Part shown: one piece after another, positions 3,719-50,939 of the stretch | Numbering within the stretch: the first letter of the stretch is position 1 | Layout: every line of letters begins with the position of its first letter | Assembly: GCA_965262485.1 (NCBI GenBank) | Contig: OZ253540.1 | Coordinates: 3,606,080-3,670,079, forward strand | Source of the DNA: Dehalococcoidia bacterium | Lineage (GTDB): Bacteria > Chloroflexota > Dehalococcoidia > Lucifugimonadales > UBA3495 | Length of the DNA stretch: 64,000 nt | Direction: 5' to 3' | Position numbers and translations under genes: made by a program | The notes under the pieces: generated by a model | What the model was told of the DNA's origin: nothing | What the model saw: only the letters and a program-made list of their open reading frames with translations | Database searches by the model: none

Positions 3719-3852
3719 CGCGGATAGCGGACGTCATCGATATTCATTGCGACCGGTTGGGGGATGGAGTGTTTTTCCAGGCCCAAAGGCTACGTATGGC
3801 GTACGGCAGGCCGCCAGCAGCGGTTTAGGCCATAGGCTTGAAACGGTCCCGT

Positions 3853-4005
3853 ATGGCTCAGAAGAATGATGTTGGTTTGGTTTTGTCCGGCGGTGGCTTC
3901 CGCGCGACGCTCTTTCACTTGGGGGCGGTATGGAGGCTGAACGAGCTGGCTTTGCTTCAATCCGTTGCGATCGCCAATACGCAGCCCCTCTGCCCTCAAT
4001 GCTAG
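3853..4005 (+). pseudogene. patatin-like phospholipase, N-terminal fragment (50 codons)
   Basis: ATG 3853 gives 'MAQKNDVGLVLSGGGFRATLFHLGAVWRLNELALLQSV...' with the patatin oxyanion motif GGGxR[AG]. Similarity ends about codon 38 and TAG is at 4003-4005. It is below the ORF-track length cutoff. Confidence 0.55.
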
Positions 4006-4095
4006 TCCCGCACAGTCTAATAATGTCAAGATCGGTCAGCTCGACGCCGCGTCCTATTCTGCTAAAAAATGCACAACACAATACAGGAGGGAATT

Positions 4096-4887
4096 GTGAG
4101 CACGACCGTTCATTTCATTGACGTGGGGCAAGGTAACATGGTGCTGGTCCAGTGCGCGAGCGGCACCAATTTCGTCGTAGATTGCAATATCACGGAGGAC
4201 AACAAAGATCGCGTCCTCGGATACGTTGCCGGGCAGATAGGCTCGGGCAGTCGGTTGCACGCCTTTATTTGCACGCACCGGGATGCGGACCATATGAAGG
4301 GCGTCCGAACCCTTCATAACCAATTCCCAATCCGGGAAGTCTATGATAGCGGTTATCCCGGCACGTCAACGGACACAGACGAATACAAAGCCTACATGCA
4401 ACTCCGGAGGGACGTGGGGCACCGGATTATTGAGAAGCAGAAATACAATGACTATGGGCGAACGCGGTTCCGATATCTGAGCGCGAAAGACGACAGACTG
4501 TCGGGCAACGCCAACGATCAGGGGATCGTTCTTAAAGTGGAGCAACGGAACCCCGATATGTCCCGGGTCTTGGGCAGCACGATCCTAACCGGCGACGGCA
4601 GTTGCGCCGTATGGAAAGACGGCATCATGAAAGATTATGCTCCCAGTCAATTGTCGTGCAACATCTTGATGGCTGCCCATCACGGCTCTCTCGACTTTTT
4701 TGATGACCCAAGCAACAACCGTTACATGAAACATATGGAAGCCATGAAACCCGCCATGACCATCGTTTCCGTGGGACCGAACAACTATGGCCATCCCGAT
4801 CCCACAGCACTAAGGTTGTACCGAGAGAATTCCAGCGGCTCAAACCAAGGCAACAAGTGTATAGGACCGACCAGCAACACACGATGA
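4096..4887 (+). CDS. MBL-fold metallo-hydrolase (ComEC C-terminal-like)
   Basis: 'VHFIDVGQGNMVLV', 'CTHRDADH', 'AAHHGS'. The likely start is GTG 4096, 5 nt after AGGAGG (4085-4090); the track start is 4069. It has the same unusual H-x-D-x-D-H variant as the first MBL gene. Confidence 0.75.
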   Translation: MSTTVHFIDVGQGNMVLVQCASGTNFVVDCNITEDNKDRVLGYVAGQIGSGSRLHAFICTHRDADHMKGVRTLHNQFPIREVYDSGYPGTSTDTDEYKAYMQLRRDVGHRIIEKQKYNDYGRTRFRYLSAKDDRLSGNANDQGIVLKVEQRNPDMSRVLGSTILTGDGSCAVWKDGIMKDYAPSQLSCNILMAAHHGSLDFFDDPSNNRYMKHMEAMKPAMTIVSVGPNNYGHPDPTALRLYRENSSGSNQGNKCIGPTSNTR

Positions 4888-4919
4888 AGCTGACCTTGAA
4901 ATCCAGGGTCTTTCAGTTT

Positions 4920-6033
4920 TCAAGGGTTAGCCAAGCCCAGGATGGCTAAGGCTTGGCCCGGCGCCCAGCCGATGCGCCGTATTGCCGCCGCGATGTTGGT
5001 CTCCCCACCGCTCCGCAACAGTCCCAAGACCACGTTGCGCAATGCCGCCATCACCTGGGGCGCTGCCCCGGTTCTCACCTGGGATGCGTCCTCCCCCAGG
5101 GTCACATCCCGAACGTAGTGCAGCCGGTTCTCAATTCCCCAGTGGCCCCGTACATACCCCAGCAGTTTCCCCGGCCCGGTCTCCCTCCCCAGGCTGGTGA
5201 TAGCGTAGCGCGTCTCCATAGACACGCTCCCCTGCTGTTTCACCCGCCGCCGCACCTCGCAGACCTGCCGCACCCCGGGCCAGTCCAGGTATTCATTCAG
5301 CGCCTCCGTAGCCCGCAACTGCCGCGTCTCCCAGCGATCCCCGTGACGGCCCCGCCGCCGGGCCTGTCGGTACTGGGCCCCCCAGATCGGCTCGGCAAAG
5401 GCCAGGGCAATGGCATCGTACAGTTCCCGCTGGTTCTTTTTCACGATGACCAGATAGTCGCCCCCAGCGTCCAGCAACTGTTGGCAATAGTCCCGCTGAC
5501 AATACAAGGCATCCCCGGTAATCACGTTACCCGCCACCGGCAGCAGTTCCGCCGTCAGTTGCCGGGCCGTTGTCAGTTCCCCCGGTACCGGCCCCACCCC
5601 CCTTTTGCCCTACCACCAGGCTGGATTCGTGAGCATATCCGGCCACCAGGCGCACCCCGGGCAACTCTGGGCCGTGGATCCCCCGCAGGGCTTTGCCGTC
5701 CACCGCAATAGCGCTCCCTGCCGGCAGTCCCGCCCGGCTCCACTCGGCCAGGGCGGACTTGAAGGCGGCCGCGTCCAGCCGACGGAATACGGTATGAAGG
5801 CTGCCCACCGCTGGCGTCCTGGGCCGGGTGAAACCCATGGCCTGCACCGTGGCGGCATCTTGCTGGCGACCCCATTGATGAATCGCGTAGAGGCTGCGGG
5901 CCCCGGAGAGCATGGCGCAGACGGCCAGCGTCAGGATGGCCGGCAGAGGATGACGCCGTCCCCGCAATCCCCGGGGGTCCGGTACCGAAGCCAGGACGGC
6001 GGGCAGGCTTTGCGCTAGTTCCGTCGTGTTCAT
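4920..6033 (-). pseudogene. ISAs1-family transposase, frameshifted
   Basis: 'MNTTELAQSLPAVLASVPDPRGLRGRRHPLPAILTLAVCAMLSGARSLYAIHQWG...IAVDGKALRG' (ORF 5527..6147) continues as '...[17 protein letters not shown]...[20 protein letters not shown]' (ORF 4920..5597). The frame break is in the C6 run at 5597-5602. The likely Met is at 6033. Confidence 0.8.
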
Positions 6034-6047
6034 ATCCCCCAGTCTAA

Positions 6048-6909
6048 GAGCCTGTCTACGATCTCTGAAATAGGTTAAGTTGAGGCTATTATTCAGGGGA
6101 GGGTAATCATGTCTCATTCCTATCCCAGCGACATCAGCCGGGAGCAATTCGCCCGTATTCTGCCGACGCTGGAGTCGGCCCGCCGCCGGACCAAGCCCCG
6201 CACCGTGGACTTGTATGACGTTTTCTGCGGTGTGCTATATCTCCTGAAAAGCGGGTGCCAGTGGCGAATGATACCCGCGGACTTCCCCGATTGGCGCACC
6301 TGCTACCAGTATTTCCGGCAATGGAGTGAGCGGCCCGACCCGGAGCAGGATTCCATTCTGGAACAAGTCCTAAAAAAAATCGGTTGGCGCGGCCCGACGC
6401 AGCAATGGGCGGAAAGAGCGGACCAGCTTCTGTATCGTGGACTCCCAGAGTGTCAAGAACACGGACAGCGCCGAGCACAAGGGCTATGACGCGGGCAAGA
6501 AGGTATCCGGAATCAAGCGACACATCGCGGTGGATACGCAAGGATTGCCCCATGCGATCCACATAACCACGGCCAACGTCACCGACCGGGCTGGGGCTTT
6601 GGCGATGTTTGACCGGCGCCGAGACGGCCTCAGTCAAGTGCAGAACGTGCTGGTGGACGGGGGTTACACCGGAAAGCCCTTTGCTGCTGCGGTGCAAAGC
6701 TTGTTGGGAGCCGCGGTGGAAGTGGTGAAACGCAGCGAACTGCACACCTTCGTGGTGCTGCCGAAGCGATGGGTGGTGGAGCGGTCTTTCGCCTGGCTGG
6801 AGAAGTGCCGCCGCCTCTGGAAGAACTGCGAAAGAAAGCTCAATACCAGCCTGCAAATGGTGGTGCTTGCCTTCATGGTGCTAATCCTCAAAAGATTGTA
6901 AACAGGCTC
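6048..6909 (+). mobile_element. IS5-family (IS427-like) element, copy 1, nested in the ISAs1 element
   Basis: IRs are GAGCCTGTCTACGATCT (6048-6064) and GAGCCTGTTTACAATCT (reverse complement of 6893-6909). TAA lies on both flanks (6045-6047, 6910-6912). It is inserted 14 bp upstream of the ISAs1 transposase start. Confidence 0.85.
6109..6901 (+). CDS. IS5-family transposase, two-frame OrfA/OrfB
   Basis: OrfA is 6109..6489 ('YLLKSGCQWRMIPADFPDWRTCYQYFRQW'). OrfB frame is 6437..6901 ('DSQSVKNTD...GYDAGKKVSGIKRHIAVDTQGLP...VERSFAWLEKCRRL'). An A8 run at 6372-6379 lies upstream of the overlap; one A fewer fuses the frames, as seen in copy 2. Confidence 0.85.
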
Positions 6910-7024
6910 TAAGGCTTCTTCTGAAAACTGAAAGACCCTGCCTTGAAATCCGGTGGTGGTTGCGATATAGCAACTAACCAGTGATCAGTCATATCGACAA
7001 CGACGAATTATCTCGCCCGCCACC

Positions 7025-19697: not shown

Positions 19698-21464
19698 ATG
19701 TTTGCGAAGCAGATCTGGTACGAGGTCCCACGCTTTCAGAGGCAATACGTTTGGGACGAGGATGAGCAATGGGAGCCGCTGTGGGCCGATGTGCAGAACA
19801 CTGCGGAGCGTTCCTTGGCCATGCGCAACGGCGGAACTGTGGGGATGCAACAGCAGACGCACTTCCTGGGTGCAGTCGTATTGCAGCAGACACAGAACAT
19901 GACTGGCCAGCTTGAATCCCGGTTGGTGGTGGATGGGCAGCAGCGTCTGACCACGCTCCAATTGCTGGTCGATGCCATCCAAGAGGTCTATCAGCAACAG
20001 GGACTGCAAACCGCGGCGGAACGTTTAGCGGACATGGTGCTGAATTACGAACGATACCGAGGAGGCGACCCCGACCGGGCCTTCAAGGTCTGGCCTACTG
20101 CCGCAGACCAGGAAGCTTTCAGGCATGCGATGAGCAATGAACTGCCTAGCGATGAATTCAAGGATTCAAACATCGTACGAGCCCACGAATTTTTCAAAAC
20201 ACAGATTGCTCACTGGCTCATAAAAGACCCCGAGGAACGGGAGACCCGGGCCGACGCTTTGGAACGTACGGTGAATAACCTGCTCGAGTTGGTGGTCATT
20301 GACCTTGAAATGGGCGATGACCCGCACGTCATTTTCGAGACGCTGAATGCTCGCGGGACTCCTCTTCTGGAGTCGGACCTGATCAAAAACATGGTCATGC
20401 ACGAGGCCGTGAGTGCGGGCATCGCTCTGGATTCGGAAGCGGGCAAGAATTCGTGGAGGTTCGACGACGGTTGGTGGAGCCAGGATGTTCAGCAAGGCCG
20501 GTTGGTGCGGCCTCGTATCGACGTATTTCTGAACTACTGGCTGGTAATGCGCTCGCAAGATGAAGTGGCCGCCAAAGAGATGTTCTCGACCTTCCGCCGC
20601 AACTATCCTAACTGGTGTCCCTCTGGGTCAATTGCAGGACTCGCAGACGAGATTCATGCCGCAGCGGAGCATTACCGAACGCTGGAAACCAAGAACCGCA
20701 CAGAAATGGAACAGTTCCTCTATCGCCGTGAAGTGATGCAAGCGGGAGTGTTGACGCCGGTGTTGATGTGGTTGCTGACCGCCGAAACTCCTCAACAACA
20801 ATTAGACAAGGTATTGCGAGCTCTCGAAAGATTCCTAGTCCGACGGATGATACTCCGTATGTCGACCAACGGTTACAACCTACTGTTCATCGGAATGCTG
20901 GAACCGTTGGAGGAAGCAGGCGCACAGCGCGCCGGCGACACCGTGTCTGCATATCTCAAGGACCAGAAAGCCCCTGCGAGGCTCTGGCCGAATGACCACG
21001 CGTTGCGGGAAGCGTTCACCTCGTGGCCTCTCTACAAGTTCCTTACCCGAGGGCGGCTGCGCTTGGTGCTGGAAGGAATCGAGAGCGACCTCAGGACCAG
21101 AATGGCCGAGAGTCAAACCGTAGAACGGACATTAACCATCGAGCACATCATGCCGCAACAGTGGCGGGAGAATTGGAAACTCCTATCGGATATCGAGGAT
21201 GTCGACAAGGCAAAAATCGACCGCGACAACCTAATTCATTCGATGGGCAACCTGACTCTGGTAAACGGTCGGTTGAACTCCAGCCTTTCTAATGCTTCGT
21301 GGGAGGATAAGCGGGCCGCCTTGGATAAACACGGTATGTTTTTCCTCAATAAAAATCTGGTCAGCGAGGCCCCTGATGTATGGAATGAGACTACCATCGA
21401 ACAGCGCGCCCTAGCGCTATGCGAATCAGCCGCAAGAGTCTGGCCTTCGAGTAAGATGTTCTAA
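19698..21464 (+). CDS. DUF262/DUF1524 protein (GmrSD-like type IV restriction enzyme)
   Basis: N-terminal 'VPRFQRQYVWDEDEQWEPLWADV' (DUF262). C-terminal 'LTIEHIMPQQW' and 'HSMGNLTLVNGRLNSSLSN' (His-Me/DUF1524). Confidence 0.85.
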   Translation: MFAKQIWYEVPRFQRQYVWDEDEQWEPLWADVQNTAERSLAMRNGGTVGMQQQTHFLGAVVLQQTQNMTGQLESRLVVDGQQRLTTLQLLVDAIQEVYQQQGLQTAAERLADMVLNYERYRGGDPDRAFKVWPTAADQEAFRHAMSNELPSDEFKDSNIVRAHEFFKTQIAHWLIKDPEERETRADALERTVNNLLELVVIDLEMGDDPHVIFETLNARGTPLLESDLIKNMVMHEAVSAGIALDSEAGKNSWRFDDGWWSQDVQQGRLVRPRIDVFLNYWLVMRSQDEVAAKEMFSTFRRNYPNWCPSGSIAGLADEIHAAAEHYRTLETKNRTEMEQFLYRREVMQAGVLTPVLMWLLTAETPQQQLDKVLRALERFLVRRMILRMSTNGYNLLFIGMLEPLEEAGAQRAGDTVSAYLKDQKAPARLWPNDHALREAFTSWPLYKFLTRGRLRLVLEGIESDLRTRMAESQTVERTLTIEHIMPQQWRENWKLLSDIEDVDKAKIDRDNLIHSMGNLTLVNGRLNSSLSNASWEDKRAALDKHGMFFLNKNLVSEAPDVWNETTIEQRALALCESAARVWPSSKMF

Positions 21465-22323
21465 GAGCCTGTCTACGATCTTTTCAGGATTAGCACCGTG
21501 AAGGCAAGCACCACCATTTGCAGGCTGGTATTGAGCTTCCTTTCACAGTTCTTCCAGAGTCGGCGGCACTTTTCCAGCCAGGCGAAAGACCGCTCCACCA
21601 CCCATCGCTTCGGCAGCACCACGAAGGTGTGCAGTTCGTTGCGTTTCACCACTTCCACCGAGGCTCCCAACAAGCTTTGCACCGCAGCGGCAAAGGGCTT
21701 CCCGGTGTAACCCCCGTCCACCAGCACCTTCTGCACCTGACTGAGGCCATCCCGGTGCTGGTCAAACATCGCCAAACCCAGCCCGGTCGGTAACGTCGGC
21801 GGTAGTCACGTGTATCCCATGGGGCAATCCTTGCGTGTCCACCGCGATGTGTCGCTTGATTCCGGACACCTTCTTGCCCGCGTCATAGCCCTTGTGCTCG
21901 GCGGTGTCCGTGTTCTTCACGCTCTGGGAGTCCACGATGCAGAAGCTGGTCTGCTCTTTCCGTCCATTGCTGCGTCGGGCCGCGCCAACCGATTTTTTTA
22001 GGACTTGCTCCAGAATGGAATCCTGACCCGGGCCAGGCCGCTCGCTCCATTGCCGGAAATACTGGTAGCAAGTGCGCCAATTGGGGAAGTCCGCGGGTAT
22101 CATTCGCCACTGGCACCCGCTTTTCAAGAGGTACAGCACGCCGCAGAAAACGTCATACAAGTCCACGGTGCGGGGCTTGGTCCGGCGTCGGGCCGACTCC
22201 AACGTTGGCAGGATACGGTCAAATTGCTCCCGGCTGATGTCGCTGGGATAGGAATGAGACATGATTACCCCTCCCCTGGTGATAGTCTCAACTTAACCTA
22301 TTTCAGAGATCGTAGACAGGTTC
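21465..22323 (-). mobile_element. IS5-family (IS427-like) element, copy 2, inverted relative to copy 1
   Basis: IRs are GAGCCTGTCTACGATCT (21465-21481) and GAACCTGTCTACGATCT (reverse complement of 22307-22323). It is >90% similar to copy 1 by eye. The flanks are TAA (21462-21464, also the stop codon of the DUF262 gene) and TTA (22324-22326). Confidence 0.85.
21473..22262 (-). pseudogene. IS5-family transposase, OrfA-OrfB fused by an A7 run then broken by a 2-nt deletion
   Basis: ORF 21762..22262 reads OrfA straight into OrfB ('...EQVLKKSVGAARRSNG...DSQSVKNTD...'). The run is T7 on the plus strand (21993-21999) versus A8 in copy 1. The frame is lost at about 21776/21777 ('gctgggtttggcg' versus copy 1 'gctggggctttggcg'). 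Confidence 0.8.
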
Positions 22324-22325
22324 TT

Positions 22326-22607
22326 ACGCTAACTCCCAATCCATCAGGGCATTTTGCCGTGGAGATTCACGACTGGGAGGAGATGATAGCCAACCTGGAT
22401 GCGCTGGAAGTGCCGTATTCTCCACCCTCTGTCCGCGCCTACAGCGGCGGGCACTCCACATACATCCAAGACCCCGACGGGAACATGATCGAGCTGGTGC
22501 AGCACCCCTTGGGGCTGCGAAACTCAAAGAGCGAAACCGTGGAAGTACCGCATGACCCGAAGGGAATGAGGTGGGCGCAACAGCCCGACTTCGGGCCTAC
22601 TGGCTGA
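22326..22607 (+). pseudogene. VOC/glyoxalase-family protein, C-terminal fragment truncated by IS5 copy 2
   Basis: 'GHFAVEIHDWEEMIANLDALEVPY...STYIQDPDGNMIELVQHP' starts directly at the IS boundary. The N-terminal half is absent from the window. Confidence 0.6.
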
Positions 22608-30134: not shown

Positions 30135-30295
30135 CCTCATCCCGAGCCGGTCGAAGGCCCACCTGTCATTGCGAGGAGCGTAGCGACGTGGCAATCTCGT
30201 TGAGGTTGAACACACGCCGGCAAACCACCATTGCTACGGCGACGAGATTGCCACGCTGCGCTCGCAATGACAGATTAAAGTGGGTACGCATGAGG
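30135..30295. repeat. modular palindromic intergenic element, family A copy 1
   Basis: An outer stem gtcattgcga...tcgcaatgac encloses a core (30187-30255) bounded by ggcaatctcgt / acgagattgcc. Related copies sit at 44314-44497 and 46651-46831. Confidence 0.8.
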
Positions 30296-30417
30296 CGCTC
30301 CTCCAGGTTAACATTTGGCCCGTTGTCGGCTAACTATATGGGCGGTGAGGGAAGGTGGGGGAGGCGCTGGAGTTCCGCGCCATTTACATTCCACGATTGG
30401 CAGGGGACGAAGCATCC

Positions 30418-44313: not shown

Positions 44314-44497
44314 CACCTGTCATTGCGACCCCGTACTTGATACGGGGGTAGCAATCTCGTCGCCGTAGCAATGGTGGTTTGCCGACGCGTGTTCAACCTC
44401 AACGAGATTGCCACGTCCCTCGACAAGCTCGGGATGAGCGGGCCTCCGCGCAATGACAGCAGGCCAGTATGGTTTGACAAAGTGGGTACGCATGAGG
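44314..44497. repeat. modular palindromic element, family A copy 2 (core inverted)
   Basis: It has the same outer flanks as copy 1, but its core (44351-44415) is the reverse complement of 30187-30255. It also contains the hairpin ccccgtacttgatacgggg. Confidence 0.8.
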
Positions 44498-44549
44498 GTA
44501 GCCCATCGGTTGCAGGGATAACGCCCGGTTGCTACAATCTTAAGCACGC

Positions 44550-44623
44550 ACCGGCGTGGTGTAGTGGTAGCGCATCGGTCTCCAAAACCGAAGGTGTGGG
44601 TTCGATTCCTTCCGCCGGTGCCA
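44550..44623 (+). tRNA. tRNA-Trp (CCA)
   Basis: Acceptor ACCGGCG/CGCCGGT. Anticodon arm TCGGT-CTCCAAA-ACCGA. T arm GTGGG-TTCGATT-CCTTC (one mismatch). Discriminator G and an encoded CCA. Confidence 0.85.
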
Positions 44624-44934: not shown

Positions 44935-45222
44935 TTAATCAATCTTGGAATTGGAGGGATAGAGACGATCCAGTTTAGTTCTGGCATCCTCAGTCCTGAA
45001 ACGCCAGTTGATGTCGGCTCGTGCCGCATTGCGCTCGGCCTCGTAGCCGTTGACCGCCCGTTGCAGAGCGGCAACATCGGGATTGCGCCCTTTAAGGCAA
45101 GCCCGGGGCAACACGCTGAACTCAATCTCCGCCATGTTCAGCCAACTGGCGTGCTTGGGCGTGTGGTGAAACTCCAGCCGCTTCACGATGCGCCGAGCTT
45201 CGGCGGCAATGACCATTGCCAT
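44935..45222 (-). pseudogene. IS630-family transposase C-terminal remnant
   Basis: 'RLEFHHTPKHASWLNMAEIEFSVL...INWRFRTEDARTKLDRLYP'. Upstream sequence to about 45400 is recognisable only in shifted frames. Confidence 0.65.
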
Positions 45223-45573: not shown

Positions 45574-46491
45574 ATGAAACCACGCAACGCCAAAGCAAAC
45601 CAACAAGCCGCTGACCCGCACGCCATTGCAATCGCTAAGGCAGTCCAAGAGGCCGTCCAACCGGATACCGTCATCCTCTTCGGATCACGAGCAATCGGAG
45701 ACTATCGGCCCGACTCGGACCTGGACCTCCTCATCGTCACCGACCAAAAACACCACATTTCAGCCCGGTTGGAAGCGGAACACGTCGCCCGCCATTACAT
45801 GAGGGCCAACCCGCCGGAACTGGAATTGGGCATCATCGCCATGGACCGACAGACGTTCGACCACTGCCGGCGCGCCAATATGCACATTGCCGGGCAAGCA
45901 GTAATCTATGGAGTCGTCATGAGCGGAGAACAGATGGACTACCGATACCACTACGAGGACGAATACCCCGAACACGGGCCCGAAACCCGCCAGCGCATCC
46001 GCCGCGCCGAAGAATACGGTTATAACCTCAACCACTTCGTCGAGACCGACTACTACGACAAGACCCTCATCGGCCAAGCTGCGGAAAAAGCGCAGGAGAA
46101 CGCCCTCAAGGGATGGCTTTCCAGCCTCCAGGACACCGGCCGCTACGGCCACGCCATCGGAGCCGCCTGGGACAAGCTTGTCGCCACAGAGGACTGGAAC
46201 CAACCCGTCATGGCCCAACTCTACCAAGCGGTCCAAGACGTGTTCGACTACACTACCTTCCCCGAGCCAGGCCGCAACAGCCCGGACCGCACCAGCAACT
46301 GGCTGATGCTGTACGCGACCATATATGACTACGCCCCCTCCGAACATCAAATGACCCGAGCGGAAGAAACCGAGCTAAGAGACAAAGCCACCTACGCCGT
46401 AGAAGGCATCATCCAGCGAATCCACCAAATCAGCGGAACGGACGACGCGGACGTATACGACAACGGGCGCAAACCTTGGAACAGGCCTTAA
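45574..46491 (+). CDS. fused nucleotidyltransferase-HEPN protein
   Basis: NTase 'VILFGSRAIGDYRPDSDLDLLIV'. C-terminal HEPN-like helices '...AAEKAQENALKGWLSSL'. The likely start is ATG 45574; the track start is 45391. Confidence 0.6.
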   Translation: MKPRNAKANQQAADPHAIAIAKAVQEAVQPDTVILFGSRAIGDYRPDSDLDLLIVTDQKHHISARLEAEHVARHYMRANPPELELGIIAMDRQTFDHCRRANMHIAGQAVIYGVVMSGEQMDYRYHYEDEYPEHGPETRQRIRRAEEYGYNLNHFVETDYYDKTLIGQAAEKAQENALKGWLSSLQDTGRYGHAIGAAWDKLVATEDWNQPVMAQLYQAVQDVFDYTTFPEPGRNSPDRTSNWLMLYATIYDYAPSEHQMTRAEETELRDKATYAVEGIIQRIHQISGTDDADVYDNGRKPWNRP

Positions 46492-46493
46492 CC

Positions 46494-46640
46494 CAGGGTC
46501 TTTCGTTCTCCCTCTCCCCTTGTGGGAGAGGGCTGGGGTGAGGGGTATAATCTGCCGCAGGATAGTTCCCTATCTCACACCCTCACCCTAACCCTCTCCC
46601 ATCAAGGGAGAGGGGATTTCTTGTAAAACCGAAAAGCCTG
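46494..46640. mobile_element. MITE (family B copy 1) with ISAs1-like termini
   Basis: The left end CAGGGTCTTTCGTTCTCC and right end (reverse complement) CAGGCTTTTCGGTTTTACAAG resemble the ISAs1 IR. It is flanked by the perfect 10-bp repeat GGCCTTAACC (46484-46493, 46641-46650). Confidence 0.8.
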
Positions 46641-46650
46641 GGCCTTAACC

Positions 46651-46831
46651 CAGGGTCATTCGGTTGTCATTGCGAGGAGCGCAGCCGCTCATGGTGAGCC
46701 TGTCGAACCACGTGGCAATCTCGTTGCGGTTGAGCACGTGCCGGGGAACCATCATTGCTACGGCGACGAGATTGCCACCCCCCGTATCAAGTACGGGGTC
46801 GCAATGACATGAGGAAAACCGAAAGGCCCTG
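46651..46831. mobile_element. MITE carrying a family A core (copy 3)
   Basis: The ends are CAGGGTCATTCGGTTGTC and (reverse complement) CAGGGCCTTTCGGTTTTCC. It is flanked by GGCCTTAACC (46641-46650) and GGCCTTAAGC (46832-46841). Confidence 0.75.
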
Positions 46832-47414
46832 GGCCTTAAGCGTCGAAAGAACCTAGTAGTCCGAAATCTTTGCAATGATGGGTTGAAATGATGGGTTGAT
46901 TGGTACAGGGCCTTTCCCCGGCCATACCGGGCTTATGGAGACTATCGCCGAGCAATCTGGCTTCCACCCGTCATTTCAAGGATGCTGGTCTGCTAGCCCA
47001 CTGCCGCGGAAAACCAAAACCGCAAGCACCGGAACGGCTCCAATGACAAGGCTGACGCAAGTCCAGCCAGCCTCGGACCGAGGCGCAGCTAACGATAACT
47101 CCAAGCCTCCGGACAAAAGGTCTCCGTTTCTCAACACACGACACCGCTAACCCAAAAAATAGTTGCTGATCCCGTCAACTTATAGAGCGGCACTGATACG
47201 GGAGGGTTCGAGAAGGCCGTCCAGCACGAATGAGGTTGACGCGCATCTTCAGTGGGCTGCATACTCACTCTCGCCGGCTGGCCTGGGCTGAAAACTGGGC
47301 AATCCTGAACCAGGTACGTCCTGTAAACTTGCTGGAAAGACGGTTGTGTACCGAAGGGACAGGCCAGTTGTCTGGCCAAACGAGAACTCATCCAACTGAA
47401 GGGGGAGGAGAACC

Positions 47415-50329: not shown

Positions 50330-50614
50330 ACGCACTTTCAGCATCCTTTTTCTTTCCCACGAGCTTATGCGGACCTGAACCTGAAGCACGCCACCTATGA
50401 AATTGGCTGGGGACTGTTGGCATTTCACGTCATTCCGGCGAAAGAACGTCACCCCGTACTTGATACGGGGCCGGAATCCAGGCGCTTTGGAAAGCAGACA
50501 TCGTTCACATTCAGGGTACTCTGGATTCCCGCTTGCGCGGGAATGACGAGCTGGGGTTAGCGAAATCGCCTTATATCTCAAATATCAACACGGCCCAGGG
50601 ACTGTGGTGGGGCC

Positions 50615-50780
50615 TTTCGATTCTCCCTCTCTCCTTGTGGGAGAGGGCTGGGGTGAGGAGTATAGTCTGCCGCAGGATAGTTCCCTATCTCACACCTTCA
50701 CCCCCGTATCAAGTACGGGGCCGGCTCTAACCCTCTCCCATCAAGGGAGAGGGGATTTCTTGTAAAACCGAAAGGCCCTG
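50615..50780. repeat. family B element copy 2 (MITE-like)
   Basis: Near-identical to 46494-46640, plus an inserted hairpin ccccgtatcaagtacgggg. The right end (reverse complement) is CAGGGCCTTTCGGTTTTACAAG. No clear target duplication. Confidence 0.7.
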
Positions 50781-50939
50781 ACCGAACGAGTACATTGTAT
50801 TGACGGATTAGGGGGTTCATAGTAAAGTCGCGCTGGATAATACTTAATCTGTAAGGATATCCTGATCACATTTTACTGATCCTGGGCGGTTATAGCGTTT
50901 CACAACGAACGTCGGGAATATCCCAGGTAGGGAGCAGGA

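Follow-up and report, generated by a model that had tools for sequence, protein, structure and literature searches.

Here we describe two different small elements that lie in tandem at the end of a nucleotidyltransferase (NTase) gene in a Dehalococcoidia bacterium, together with an ISAs1-family IS from the same window (the whole 64,000-nucleotide stretch of DNA that was analysed). Read directly from the sequence, the order at 46484–46841 is GGCCTTAACC, a 147-bp element (E1), GGCCTTAACC again, a 181-bp element (E2) and GGCCTTAAGC. A first-pass annotation of the window had placed two elements in tandem in one 10-bp target, and this layout is exact to the base. The features are as follows (TSD, target-site duplication).

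45574–46491, forward strand: NTase gene, 305 aa, identical to P0123, with PF01909 and PF18765
46484–46493, forward strand: TSD copy 1, GGCCTTAACC, identical to the single copy in the empty sites L125, L126, L127 and L131
46494–46640, forward strand: MITE E1, 147 bp, ISAs1-type terminal repeats flanking a long imperfect palindrome (the 'GGGAGAGGG...GGTGAGGG' module)
46641–46650, forward strand: TSD copy 2, GGCCTTAACC, the 10-bp spacer between E1 and E2, read directly
46651–46831, forward strand: MITE E2, 181 bp, ISAs1-type termini of 14 bp and 22 bp flanking a 'family A' palindromic module
46832–46841, forward strand: TSD copy 3, GGCCTTAAGC, read directly
50596–50780, forward strand: third copy in the window, E1 family, right end intact, left repeat disrupted, 24-bp internal insert
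30164–30272, forward strand: family A palindromic module without ISAs1-type termini, matching the E2 interior
44317–44459, reverse strand: family A palindromic module without ISAs1-type termini, matching the E2 interior and adjoining tRNA-Trp
4904–6940, reverse strand: ISAs1-family IS with 19-bp terminal repeats, CAGGGTCTTTCAGTTTTCA, and a perfect 10-bp duplication, CCTTGAAATC
4920–6033, reverse strand: ISAs1 transposase gene, two overlapping frames, split at the CAAAAGGGGGG run
6045–6910, forward strand: nested IS5-like element (DUF4096 and DDE_Tnp_1), separating the ISAs1 transposase start from the right repeat

The NTase open reading frame (45391/45574–46491) ends in a TAA at 46489–46491 that falls, as had been claimed, within the first TSD copy, and the target of the presumed first event, GGCCTTAACC, extends 2 bp past the NTase coding end. 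Copy 3 differs from the other two by a C>G change at position 9, which probably arose after insertion because the empty sites have C there. Both elements begin with CAGGGTC, and the reverse complements of their ends are CAGGCTTTTCGGTTTTACA (E1) and CAGGGCCTTTCGGTTTTCC (E2). The inverted repeats of E1 are slightly decayed (CAGGGTCTTTCG-TTCT versus CAGG-CTTTTCGGTTTT), each terminus carrying a 1-nt deletion relative to the E1 family consensus; those of E2 are CAGGGTCATTCGGTTGT and CAGGGCCTTTCGGTTTT. Folded as DNA, E1 reaches −41.1 kcal/mol (z −7.6). Compared with its counterpart in the L124 strain, the window copy of E2 has 23 bp inserted internally. The two elements are short and non-coding; the only open reading frame over the region (46645–46875, 76 aa) runs through palindromic repeat. 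An Rfam scan of the elements returned no family above threshold, E1 giving only sub-threshold matches to microRNA-precursor-like hairpins.

Relatives of both elements are numerous. Dozens of E1- and E2-type copies are present among the matches listed, which come from about 20 chunks of OZ244795.1 and from other Dehalococcoidia MAGs. E1 relatives of 149–156 bp (91–95% identity) have perfect 10-bp duplications in L007, L042 and L098, and a further one in L101 has flanks identical at 9 of 10 positions. E2 relatives of 145–157 bp have perfect 10-bp duplications in L014, L020, L043, L081, L024, L055, L063 and L108. The window itself holds two E1-type copies; at the flanks of the one at 50596–50780, whose left repeat is disrupted, no duplication was recognisable. 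The family A module that forms the interior of E2 also occurs without such termini, as had been noted for positions near 30135 and 44314, and the two occurrences are those listed above at 30164 and 44317.

The resident IS carries its inverted repeat at 4904–4922 and, inverted, at 6922–6940, and its duplication at 4894–4903 and 6941–6950. The IS had been taken as full; it is disrupted by the nested IS5-like element, and its transposase lies in two frames. Without the nested insert its size is about 1171 bp. The insert has a second copy in the window (21464–22326) and is missing from the otherwise 97% identical IS in L064/L086, which, like the window copy, has a perfect 10-bp duplication. Deletion of one G from the CAAAAGGGGGG run gives a 370-aa transposase product that scores 212.8 bits against NF033564 (ISAs1; cutoff 70) over profile positions 1–314 of 314, and the two halves match PF13808 (DDE_Tnp_1_assoc) and PF01609 (DDE_Tnp_1). 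A search for an intact ISAs1 transposase elsewhere found none demonstrably so: all four diverged copies examined (window, L064/L086, L099 and L068) are split at the same G run. The common frameshift may reflect programmed recoding or shared decay, and the sequence-based assignment to ISAs1 is unaffected by it. A PDB sequence search with the transposase gave no match.

The ISAs1 family is widespread and includes the H-repeat elements of E. coli. As defined in ISfinder, its members are 1.2–1.5 kb long, have ends beginning CAGGG, make duplications of 0–10 bp and encode the transposase as one open reading frame. The resident IS resembles ISAs1 and ISEc1/H-repeat in its transposase, its CAGGG ends, its length (about 1.17–1.19 kb) and its 10-bp duplication. 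It departs from them in the transposase split at the CAAAAGGGGGG run, where a single uninterrupted frame is expected, and, in the window copy, in the nested IS5-like element.

The ends of the small elements are those of the IS. A search of the whole window with a 17-mer terminus, allowing up to three mismatches, gave six matches against 0.17 expected, all six at the ends of the IS or of small elements. IS repeats and MITE ends match at 16 of 17 positions, and a MITE in L005 agrees with the right end of the IS at 27 of 28 terminal nucleotides. The resemblance to the ISAs1 inverted repeat reported in the first-pass annotation is thereby borne out, as is the equal length of the duplications, that of the IS being a perfect 10 bp. 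Copies elsewhere behave in the same way. We sampled about 0.9 Mb of related Dehalococcoidia loci (at least 117 stretches), picked for containing the terminus. Among 54 end pairs in these terminus-selected loci of related genomes, the flanks form a perfect 10-bp duplication in 21 and are identical at 9 of 10 positions in 8 (29/54); in a shifted control no pair (0/54) reached 9 of 10 identical positions. The duplicated 10-mers are diverse in sequence, and no target consensus was found inside the 10 bp among thirty validated duplications.

Empty sites, the comparison proposed for related strains, exist. Four syntenic contigs from close relatives (L125, L126, L127 and L131) have a precise empty site with one GGCCTTAACC and no element, reading ...ggaaca GGCCTTAACC gtcgaaagaacc..., and L122–L124 have the same T/E1/T/E2/T' structure as the window, where T is the 10-bp target. 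The locus was found empty, doubly filled or deleted only; among 11 syntenic or related contigs, reached via NTase variants, none carries an E1-only or E2-only allele. These contigs derive from natural, mixed populations in which variants co-exist (a 23-bp indel, a 13-bp repeat difference and a deletion). In L118 the stretch corresponding to window positions 46476–47018 is missing. We considered this as a MITE-associated deletion and rejected it; L118 has SNPs in common with the empty-site lineage, so that the deletion probably arose without the MITEs.

Element–element junctions were counted as gaps of 0–60 bp from a right end to the next left end, across four CAGG-tipped repeat families. In the sampled loci, abutting CAGG-tipped elements are always separated by 9–11 bp and by exactly 10 bp in 7 of 9 cases, the window junction included. 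Partners at the other junctions are different element families separated by unrelated 10-mers, and the spacing is unchanged. Flanks of duplication-validated insertions start exactly with CAGG in 6 of 60 cases, against 0.39 expected (Poisson P = 3.5e-6). L024, from another genome, contains an independent stack of the form T'/C element/T/E2-like/T. In L081, L055 and L108 the duplication brackets the ISAs1-type MITE only; on the far side of the abutting element, L081 and L108 show no matching flank, and in L055 that side lies beyond the locus start. Bracketing of the MITE alone fits its insertion beside a pre-existing element. The junction in L007 has 10-bp spacing and no duplication identity, and either end of an E2-type MITE can face a junction. 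Exact end-to-end stacking is a recurrent feature of this element group in related genomes, and, because the gaps are 9–11 bp, it seems that a new copy joins a resident element exactly at its tip.

We therefore favour the following account, with a probability of roughly 0.85. E1 and E2 would be two different non-autonomous derivatives of ISAs1-family ISs, each consisting of ISAs1-type repeats around a non-coding palindromic module, and each would have reached the chromosome of this Dehalococcoidia lineage by a transposition of its own. Catalysis would have been provided in trans by an ISAs1-type DDE transposase making a 10-bp staggered cut. The first event would have duplicated GGCCTTAACC, and the second would have used one of the two copies again, giving T/E1/T/E2/T; the C>G change of copy 3 would be a later step. 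That there were two separate events is suggested by the target copy lying between the elements. The exact reuse is most readily explained if the transposase places each new copy precisely at the tip of a CAGG... end already present: if one strand were transferred at the junction of resident repeat and flank and the other 10 bp away, the 10 bp beside the resident end would be duplicated again. The first-pass annotation had seen direct evidence for mobilisation in trans. The shared ends and the shared duplication length stand, and from them we infer such mobilisation; 'direct' overstates it.

The same annotation also spoke of one target site used repeatedly. The structure agrees with this; a preferred sequence does not emerge, and insertion at the tip of the resident end explains the reuse better. 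Were GGCCTTAACC, or a motif in it, a hot spot of which one copy was struck again, one might point to the window IS, which sits in CCTTGAAATC and shares CCTT..AA with GGCCTTAACC, and to tandem dimers of the Drosophila P element, which favour sites near the target consensus (PMC5932611). However, the thirty validated duplications have no common sequence, junctions elsewhere keep their spacing with unrelated 10-mers and other element families, and a hot spot does not predict an abutting element that lacks a far-side duplication, as in L081 and L108; we consider this explanation unlikely. Exchange within the 10-bp repeat between a T/E1/T and a T/E2/T allele could also have built the array, and the mixed populations, with several co-existing alleles of the locus, would offer the opportunity. 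Such recombination still requires two independent strikes on the same 10 bp, followed by exchange through 10 bp of homology, and the survey of contigs recovered neither single-element allele, which makes it a poor candidate.

Slightly less probable still is a single event, in which a preformed E1–spacer–E2 composite moved as a unit via its outer ends. Those ends are correctly paired as inverted repeats, and the flanks of the 338-bp unit form a duplication identical at 9 of 10 positions. The internal spacer is nevertheless identical to the empty-site target, a coincidence between donor spacer and target of about 1 in 10^6, and no second copy of the composite occurs in any locus examined. We give least credence of all to the possibility that E1 and E2 are not transposons and that the CAGGG...CCCTG ends are stems of REP/BIME-like or terminator hairpins. 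The junction ccgaaaagcctg GGCCTTAACC cagggtcattcgg is itself a hairpin, and a metagenome scan for CCCTG-N(0-24)-CAGGGYCTTTCGGTT returned mostly the hairpins, with 8-nt loops, of unrelated intrinsic terminators in AT-rich organisms, and few true MITE junctions (for example L191, with duplication CGATAGCCCC). REP/BIME elements are palindromes of 20–40 bp without target duplication, and we know of no REP element that creates one. E1 and E2, by contrast, are 147–181 bp long, make exact 10-bp duplications with precise empty sites and have the termini of an IS that encodes a transposase and likewise duplicates 10 bp.

IS-derived MITEs are well known in bacteria, examples being Correia/NEMIS, ERIC, MITEAba12 and the cyanobacterial MITEs. 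Like these, E1 and E2 are small, non-coding, multicopy and mostly intergenic, with strong hairpin potential; their repeats match, exactly or almost so, those of an autonomous IS of the same genomes, and their TSDs, verified against empty sites, have the length of the parent's. By their size, below the limit of about 600 bp, and by coding content, repeats, TSDs, copy number and termini common to an IS, both belong with prokaryotic MITEs. They differ from known MITEs in their parent (ISAs1), in their host (uncultured Dehalococcoidia) and in their modular cargo, the same palindromic module also occurring without these termini. A 2024 review of prokaryotic MITEs (PMC10969869) does not include the ISAs1 family, and our full-text literature search for ISAs1 plus MITE found no described ISAs1 MITEs, the terms being unconnected in the papers examined. 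The stacked MITEs thus appear to be of a kind already known; it is their targeting behaviour, as yet unproven, that would be unusual.

The closest parallel to that behaviour is the targeting of inverted repeats by IS30, in which a new copy inserts beside a resident inverted repeat with a 2-bp spacer equal to the duplication length (PMC9333248). Here, too, stacked ends are set apart by a spacer of the duplication length (10 bp), a pattern known from sequences alone. Unlike in IS30, non-autonomous elements of different kinds, and even of different terminus families, are paired here, and there is no orientation rule, whereas IS30 gives only IRL–IRR junctions. With a transposase of ISAs1 type, the process would work like IR-targeting and not be a member of the IS30 system. 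Tandems of Drosophila P elements and of R1 with an intact target duplication in the junction have likewise been read as two insertions, and the same paper cites bacterial tandem dimers with a duplication in the junction (PMC5932611). Those of P and R1 are copies of the same element and are attributed to a strong target-sequence preference; here the elements differ, and the 10-mers are unrelated between sites.

With a sister-strain empty site and two elements in one target, the locus offers a clean natural record of two ISAs1-type integrations, one that would fix the stagger at 10 bp and suggests that 14–22 terminal bases are sufficient for mobility. To our knowledge, the transposition mechanism and target choice of the ISAs1 family are essentially uncharacterised. 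For annotation, such elements would account for a large part of the modular, palindromic repeat sequence in intergenic regions of uncultured Dehalococcoidia and for the spurious open reading frames called across them.

A tentative extension, possible rather than probable in our judgement, is that ISAs1-type targeting is positional and does not depend on the sequence duplicated: the transposase would choose the exact tip of any resident CAGG-tipped end, piling unrelated MITEs into T/E/T/E/T arrays, or, otherwise, a site at a constant distance upstream of a promoter, where 8–9 bp separate the end of the duplication from a −35-like TTGMCN hexamer. If this holds, a bacterial IS family with an unstudied mechanism would integrate in register with promoters and with resident ends. 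The 10-bp spacing and the −35-registered flanks make testable predictions on the target choice of this transposase. Long open reading frames lie 50–125 nt beyond the duplication, positions that are suggestive of a promoter; a test for their presence gave 20/24 versus 25/36, and discriminates poorly in high-GC DNA. TTG stands at +9/+10 of the flank in 19 of 53 cases, against a background of 3%, and 12 of these 19 flanks also have TAnnnT at −10 spacing. The TTG pattern is present in contigs of Dehalococcoidia, Planctomycetota and Phycisphaerae.

When the region 46300-47000 was read directly, the arrangement proposed for 46484-46841 by the first-pass annotation, in which two different MITEs (E1 and E2) alternate with three copies of a 10-bp target, proved exact to the base:

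Features of the tandem MITE site
46484-46493, target copy 1, GGCCTTAACC
46494-46640, E1, 147-bp element
46641-46650, target copy 2, GGCCTTAACC
46651-46831, E2, 181-bp element
46832-46841, target copy 3, GGCCTTAAGC

Both elements begin with CAGGGTC, and the reverse complements of their ends read CAGGCTTTTCGGTTTTACA (E1) and CAGGGCCTTTCGGTTTTCC (E2). The ORF upstream of E1 matches Pfam NTP_transf_2 and Polbeta and is a nucleotidyltransferase (NTase) gene; its TAA stop codon (46489-46491) lies within target copy 1, as annotated. A 17-mer terminus search with up to three mismatches returned six sites in the window (0.17 expected), all of them ends of the resident insertion sequence (IS) or of small elements, which bears out the claimed match between the MITE termini and the IS repeats. 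E1 and E2 show all the features that define a prokaryotic MITE at the sequence level and are classed as such.

Alleles were compared using contigs that carry close variants of P0123, a protein identical to the window NTase. In three filled alleles (L122, L123 and L124) target, E1, target, E2 and altered target follow one another as in the window. Four syntenic empty alleles (L125, L126, L127 and L131) read ...aaaccttggaaca GGCCTTAACC gtcgaaagaacc...; nor is there any element in L119 or L128-L130, a paralogous and more distant context. Because the empty alleles keep a single 10-mer and no element, the 348 bp are an insertion with exactly the boundaries first proposed. Position 9 of the ancestral 10-mer is C in the empty alleles, and the G in target copy 3 is therefore a change after insertion. 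No allele with E1 or E2 alone was found among the NTase-variant contigs fetched. E2 of L124 is without 23 internal bp present in the window; either the 181-bp E2 is a 158-bp form with an internal insertion, or 23 bp were lost in L124. The segment concerned (ccgctcatggtgagcctgtcgaa, 46684-46706) is similar to a portion of a different repeat module (ctcatcccgagccggtcgaa, 30137-30156), which points to exchange between repeat families, or insertion from one into another, once the MITE was in place. In L118 a stretch equivalent to 46476-47018 is missing, a deletion that probably arose without MITEs, since L118 has SNPs in common with the empty-site lineage. Some strains (L118 3880-3940, P0001; also P0128) have lost the NTase stop codon to a deletion, fusing the gene to downstream sequence in a variant of 312 aa with a different C terminus. 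A 13-bp unit (TTGAAATGATGGG, 2.3 copies at 46870-46899) is polymorphic, with one unit fewer in L123, L125, L126, L127 and L131.

A scan for CAGGGYCTTTCRGTTTT in one genome per species found at least 117 stretches, many in Dehalococcoidia MAGs, and about 0.9 Mb of loci, selected for carrying a terminus, formed the sample. The matches listed include many E1-like copies, 149-156 bp long and 91-95% identical, and many that are E2-like, 145-171 bp long. When every left end was joined to its closest right end at a distance of 60-400 bp, these matches yielded 54 pairs; the 10-bp flanks are identical in 21 and agree at 9/10 positions in 8 more, so that 29/54 pairs reach at least 9/10 identity, against 0/54 when the right flank was moved by 10 bp. 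The MITE family thus produces consistent 10-bp duplications, as the IS does, and in the MITE of locus L005, 27 of 28 terminal nucleotides are the same as in the IS right end.

The resident IS is itself interrupted:

Features of the resident IS and its nested element
4904-6940, resident IS, 2037 bp, transposase on the minus strand
about 6045-6910, nested IS5-like element, about 866 bp, between the transposase start codon (6033) and the right repeat
21464-22326, second IS5-like copy, 93% identical to the nested one

Its terminal repeat (CAGGGTCTTTCAGTTTTCA, 4904-4922) recurs inverted at 6922-6940, and a perfect 10-bp direct repeat (CCTTGAAATC) on both sides confirms the duplication length said to be common to IS and MITEs. 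The IS5-like element has two overlapping ORFs (DUF4096, DDE_Tnp_1). Without it the IS measures 1171 bp, as does a copy 97% identical to it, uninterrupted and with its own perfect 10-bp duplication (TCTCTACCTC), from another Dehalococcoidia MAG (L064+L086). The transposase gene lies in two overlapping frames, whose products match DDE_Tnp_1_assoc and DDE_Tnp_1, respectively, and which meet at a CAAAAGGGGGG run (5560-5620, minus strand). With one G deleted in silico, the product is 370 aa long and aligns with the full length of the NCBIfam profile NF033564 (ISAs1 family transposase), scoring 212.8 bits (cutoff 70); because of this end-to-end match we assign the element, by sequence, to the ISAs1 family. 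The intact transposase sought elsewhere did not appear: all four copies examined (window, L064/L086, L099 and L068; 85-97% identical, from different assemblies) are split at this very CAAAAGGGGGG run. Programmed +1 recoding or transcriptional slippage (neither, to our knowledge, described for the ISAs1 family) may be responsible, or else common decay.

How one target came to be used twice can be narrowed down. A single composite insertion of E1, spacer and E2 would have brought its spacer from the donor, a sequence that would match the target by chance about once in a million cases; such an event is excluded because the internal copy is identical to the 10-mer of the empty sites, which also upholds the annotated reuse of one site. 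The data do not support a sequence hot spot within the target: the duplicated 10-mers of different insertions are unrelated to one another. We favour end-directed integration, in which the transposase would take the tip of a resident element as its target position and the 10 bp beside that tip would be duplicated a second time. Several findings point this way. Across all loci we located the termini of repeats in four CAGG-tipped families (the ISAs1 type and those ending CAGGAYSATTGCRAA, CAGGGCTATCGCAWW and CAGGGCCTTTTMAAAG) and measured each distance of 0-60 bp that separates a right end from the left end after it; the eight gaps so obtained are all 9-11 bp (six exactly 10), and the E1-E2 junction (10 bp) is a ninth case. 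An exact CAGG start occurs in 6/60 flanks of duplication-validated insertions (0.39 expected). In L024, from a different genome, different elements have stacked independently in a single target: ...CCCTG is followed by CCCCGATGAC, a C-type element, GCCCGATGAC (equivalent to GGCCGATGAC), an E2-like MITE and GCCCGATGAC again. As predicted for insertion beside an already resident end, the duplication in L081, L055 and L108 encloses the ISAs1-type MITE only; the abutting element has no matching far-side flank in L081 and L108, and in L055 its far side is beyond the locus start. A metagenome scan for such gaps was confounded by terminator hairpins.

The junction spacer equals the duplication length, as in IS30 IR-targeting (PMC9333248), and a duplication copy sits in the junction, as in tandem elements of bacteria and Drosophila (PMC5932611); here, however, the partners are different non-autonomous elements and follow no orientation rule.

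For 30 validated insertions (L005-L117), the outward flanks show an excess of T, T and G at positions +9 to +11, counted from the edge of the duplication. With flanks that are resident ends left out, TTG stands at +9 or +10 in 19/53 flanks (background 3.1%, P about 9e-16), 12 of the 19 having TAnnnT at -10 spacing: a -35-like hexamer, TTGMCN, starts 9-10 bp from the edge, often with a -10-like TAnnnT 16-19 bp on, and long ORFs frequently begin 50-125 nt past the duplication. The register occurs in contigs of several phyla (L061, L117), on both flanks of the L099 IS, beside the window IS (6951-6966, TTGCGA at +10) and beside a third E1-type copy (50791-50830; TTGACG, 17 nt, TAAAGT). The elements seem to keep a constant spacing from promoters downstream of them, through either targeting or selection. 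The flanks of the tandem E1/E2 site lack the TTG register, which fits a second insertion guided by the end of the first element. The stacking rule and this register are potentially new behaviour; IS-derived MITEs as a kind are already known. We found no description of ISAs1-derived MITEs in the literature searched, whose coverage took in few subscription journals, and a review of prokaryotic MITEs from 2024 (PMC10969869) has no mention of ISAs1 or of insertions that are tandem or nested.

The 3.3 kb around the NTase gene, between peptidase and CoA-transferase genes, are an insertion hot spot, given that a family A module (the palindromic repeat also found inside E2) and a DDE_3-type transposase fragment (44935-45222) lie there together with the MITEs; a tRNA-Trp (CCA) gene (44550-44623) stands between module and fragment. 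A 20-bp palindrome, CCCCGTAYTYGATACGGGG, occurs at 44329-44349, 46779-46798, 50451-50470 and 50701-50720, each time in or beside a different larger repeat; it resembles a tiny module in its own right, either mobile or recombining. Within the third E1-type copy (50596-50780), which has no recognisable duplication, it is part of a 24-bp insert absent from other E1 copies, and the left terminal repeat (50596-50620) is lengthened internally by 12 bases, reading CAGGG-ACTGTGGTGGGG-CCTTTCG. L042 (5893-5927) and L101 (7062-7101) each carry an E1-type MITE inside a family A module, the two modules being different ones. Both MITEs sit in the module's outer arm at an equivalent point, following ...AAAGTGRGTAC, with opposite orientations and with duplications that match internally and differ from each other; this point is vacant in both window modules (30275-30299, 44460-44500). 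L081 carries four 169-bp tandem units (3831-4500; 94% matches), each joining half of the E1-type module to half of the family A module; tandem amplification, too, occurs in these palindromic modules.
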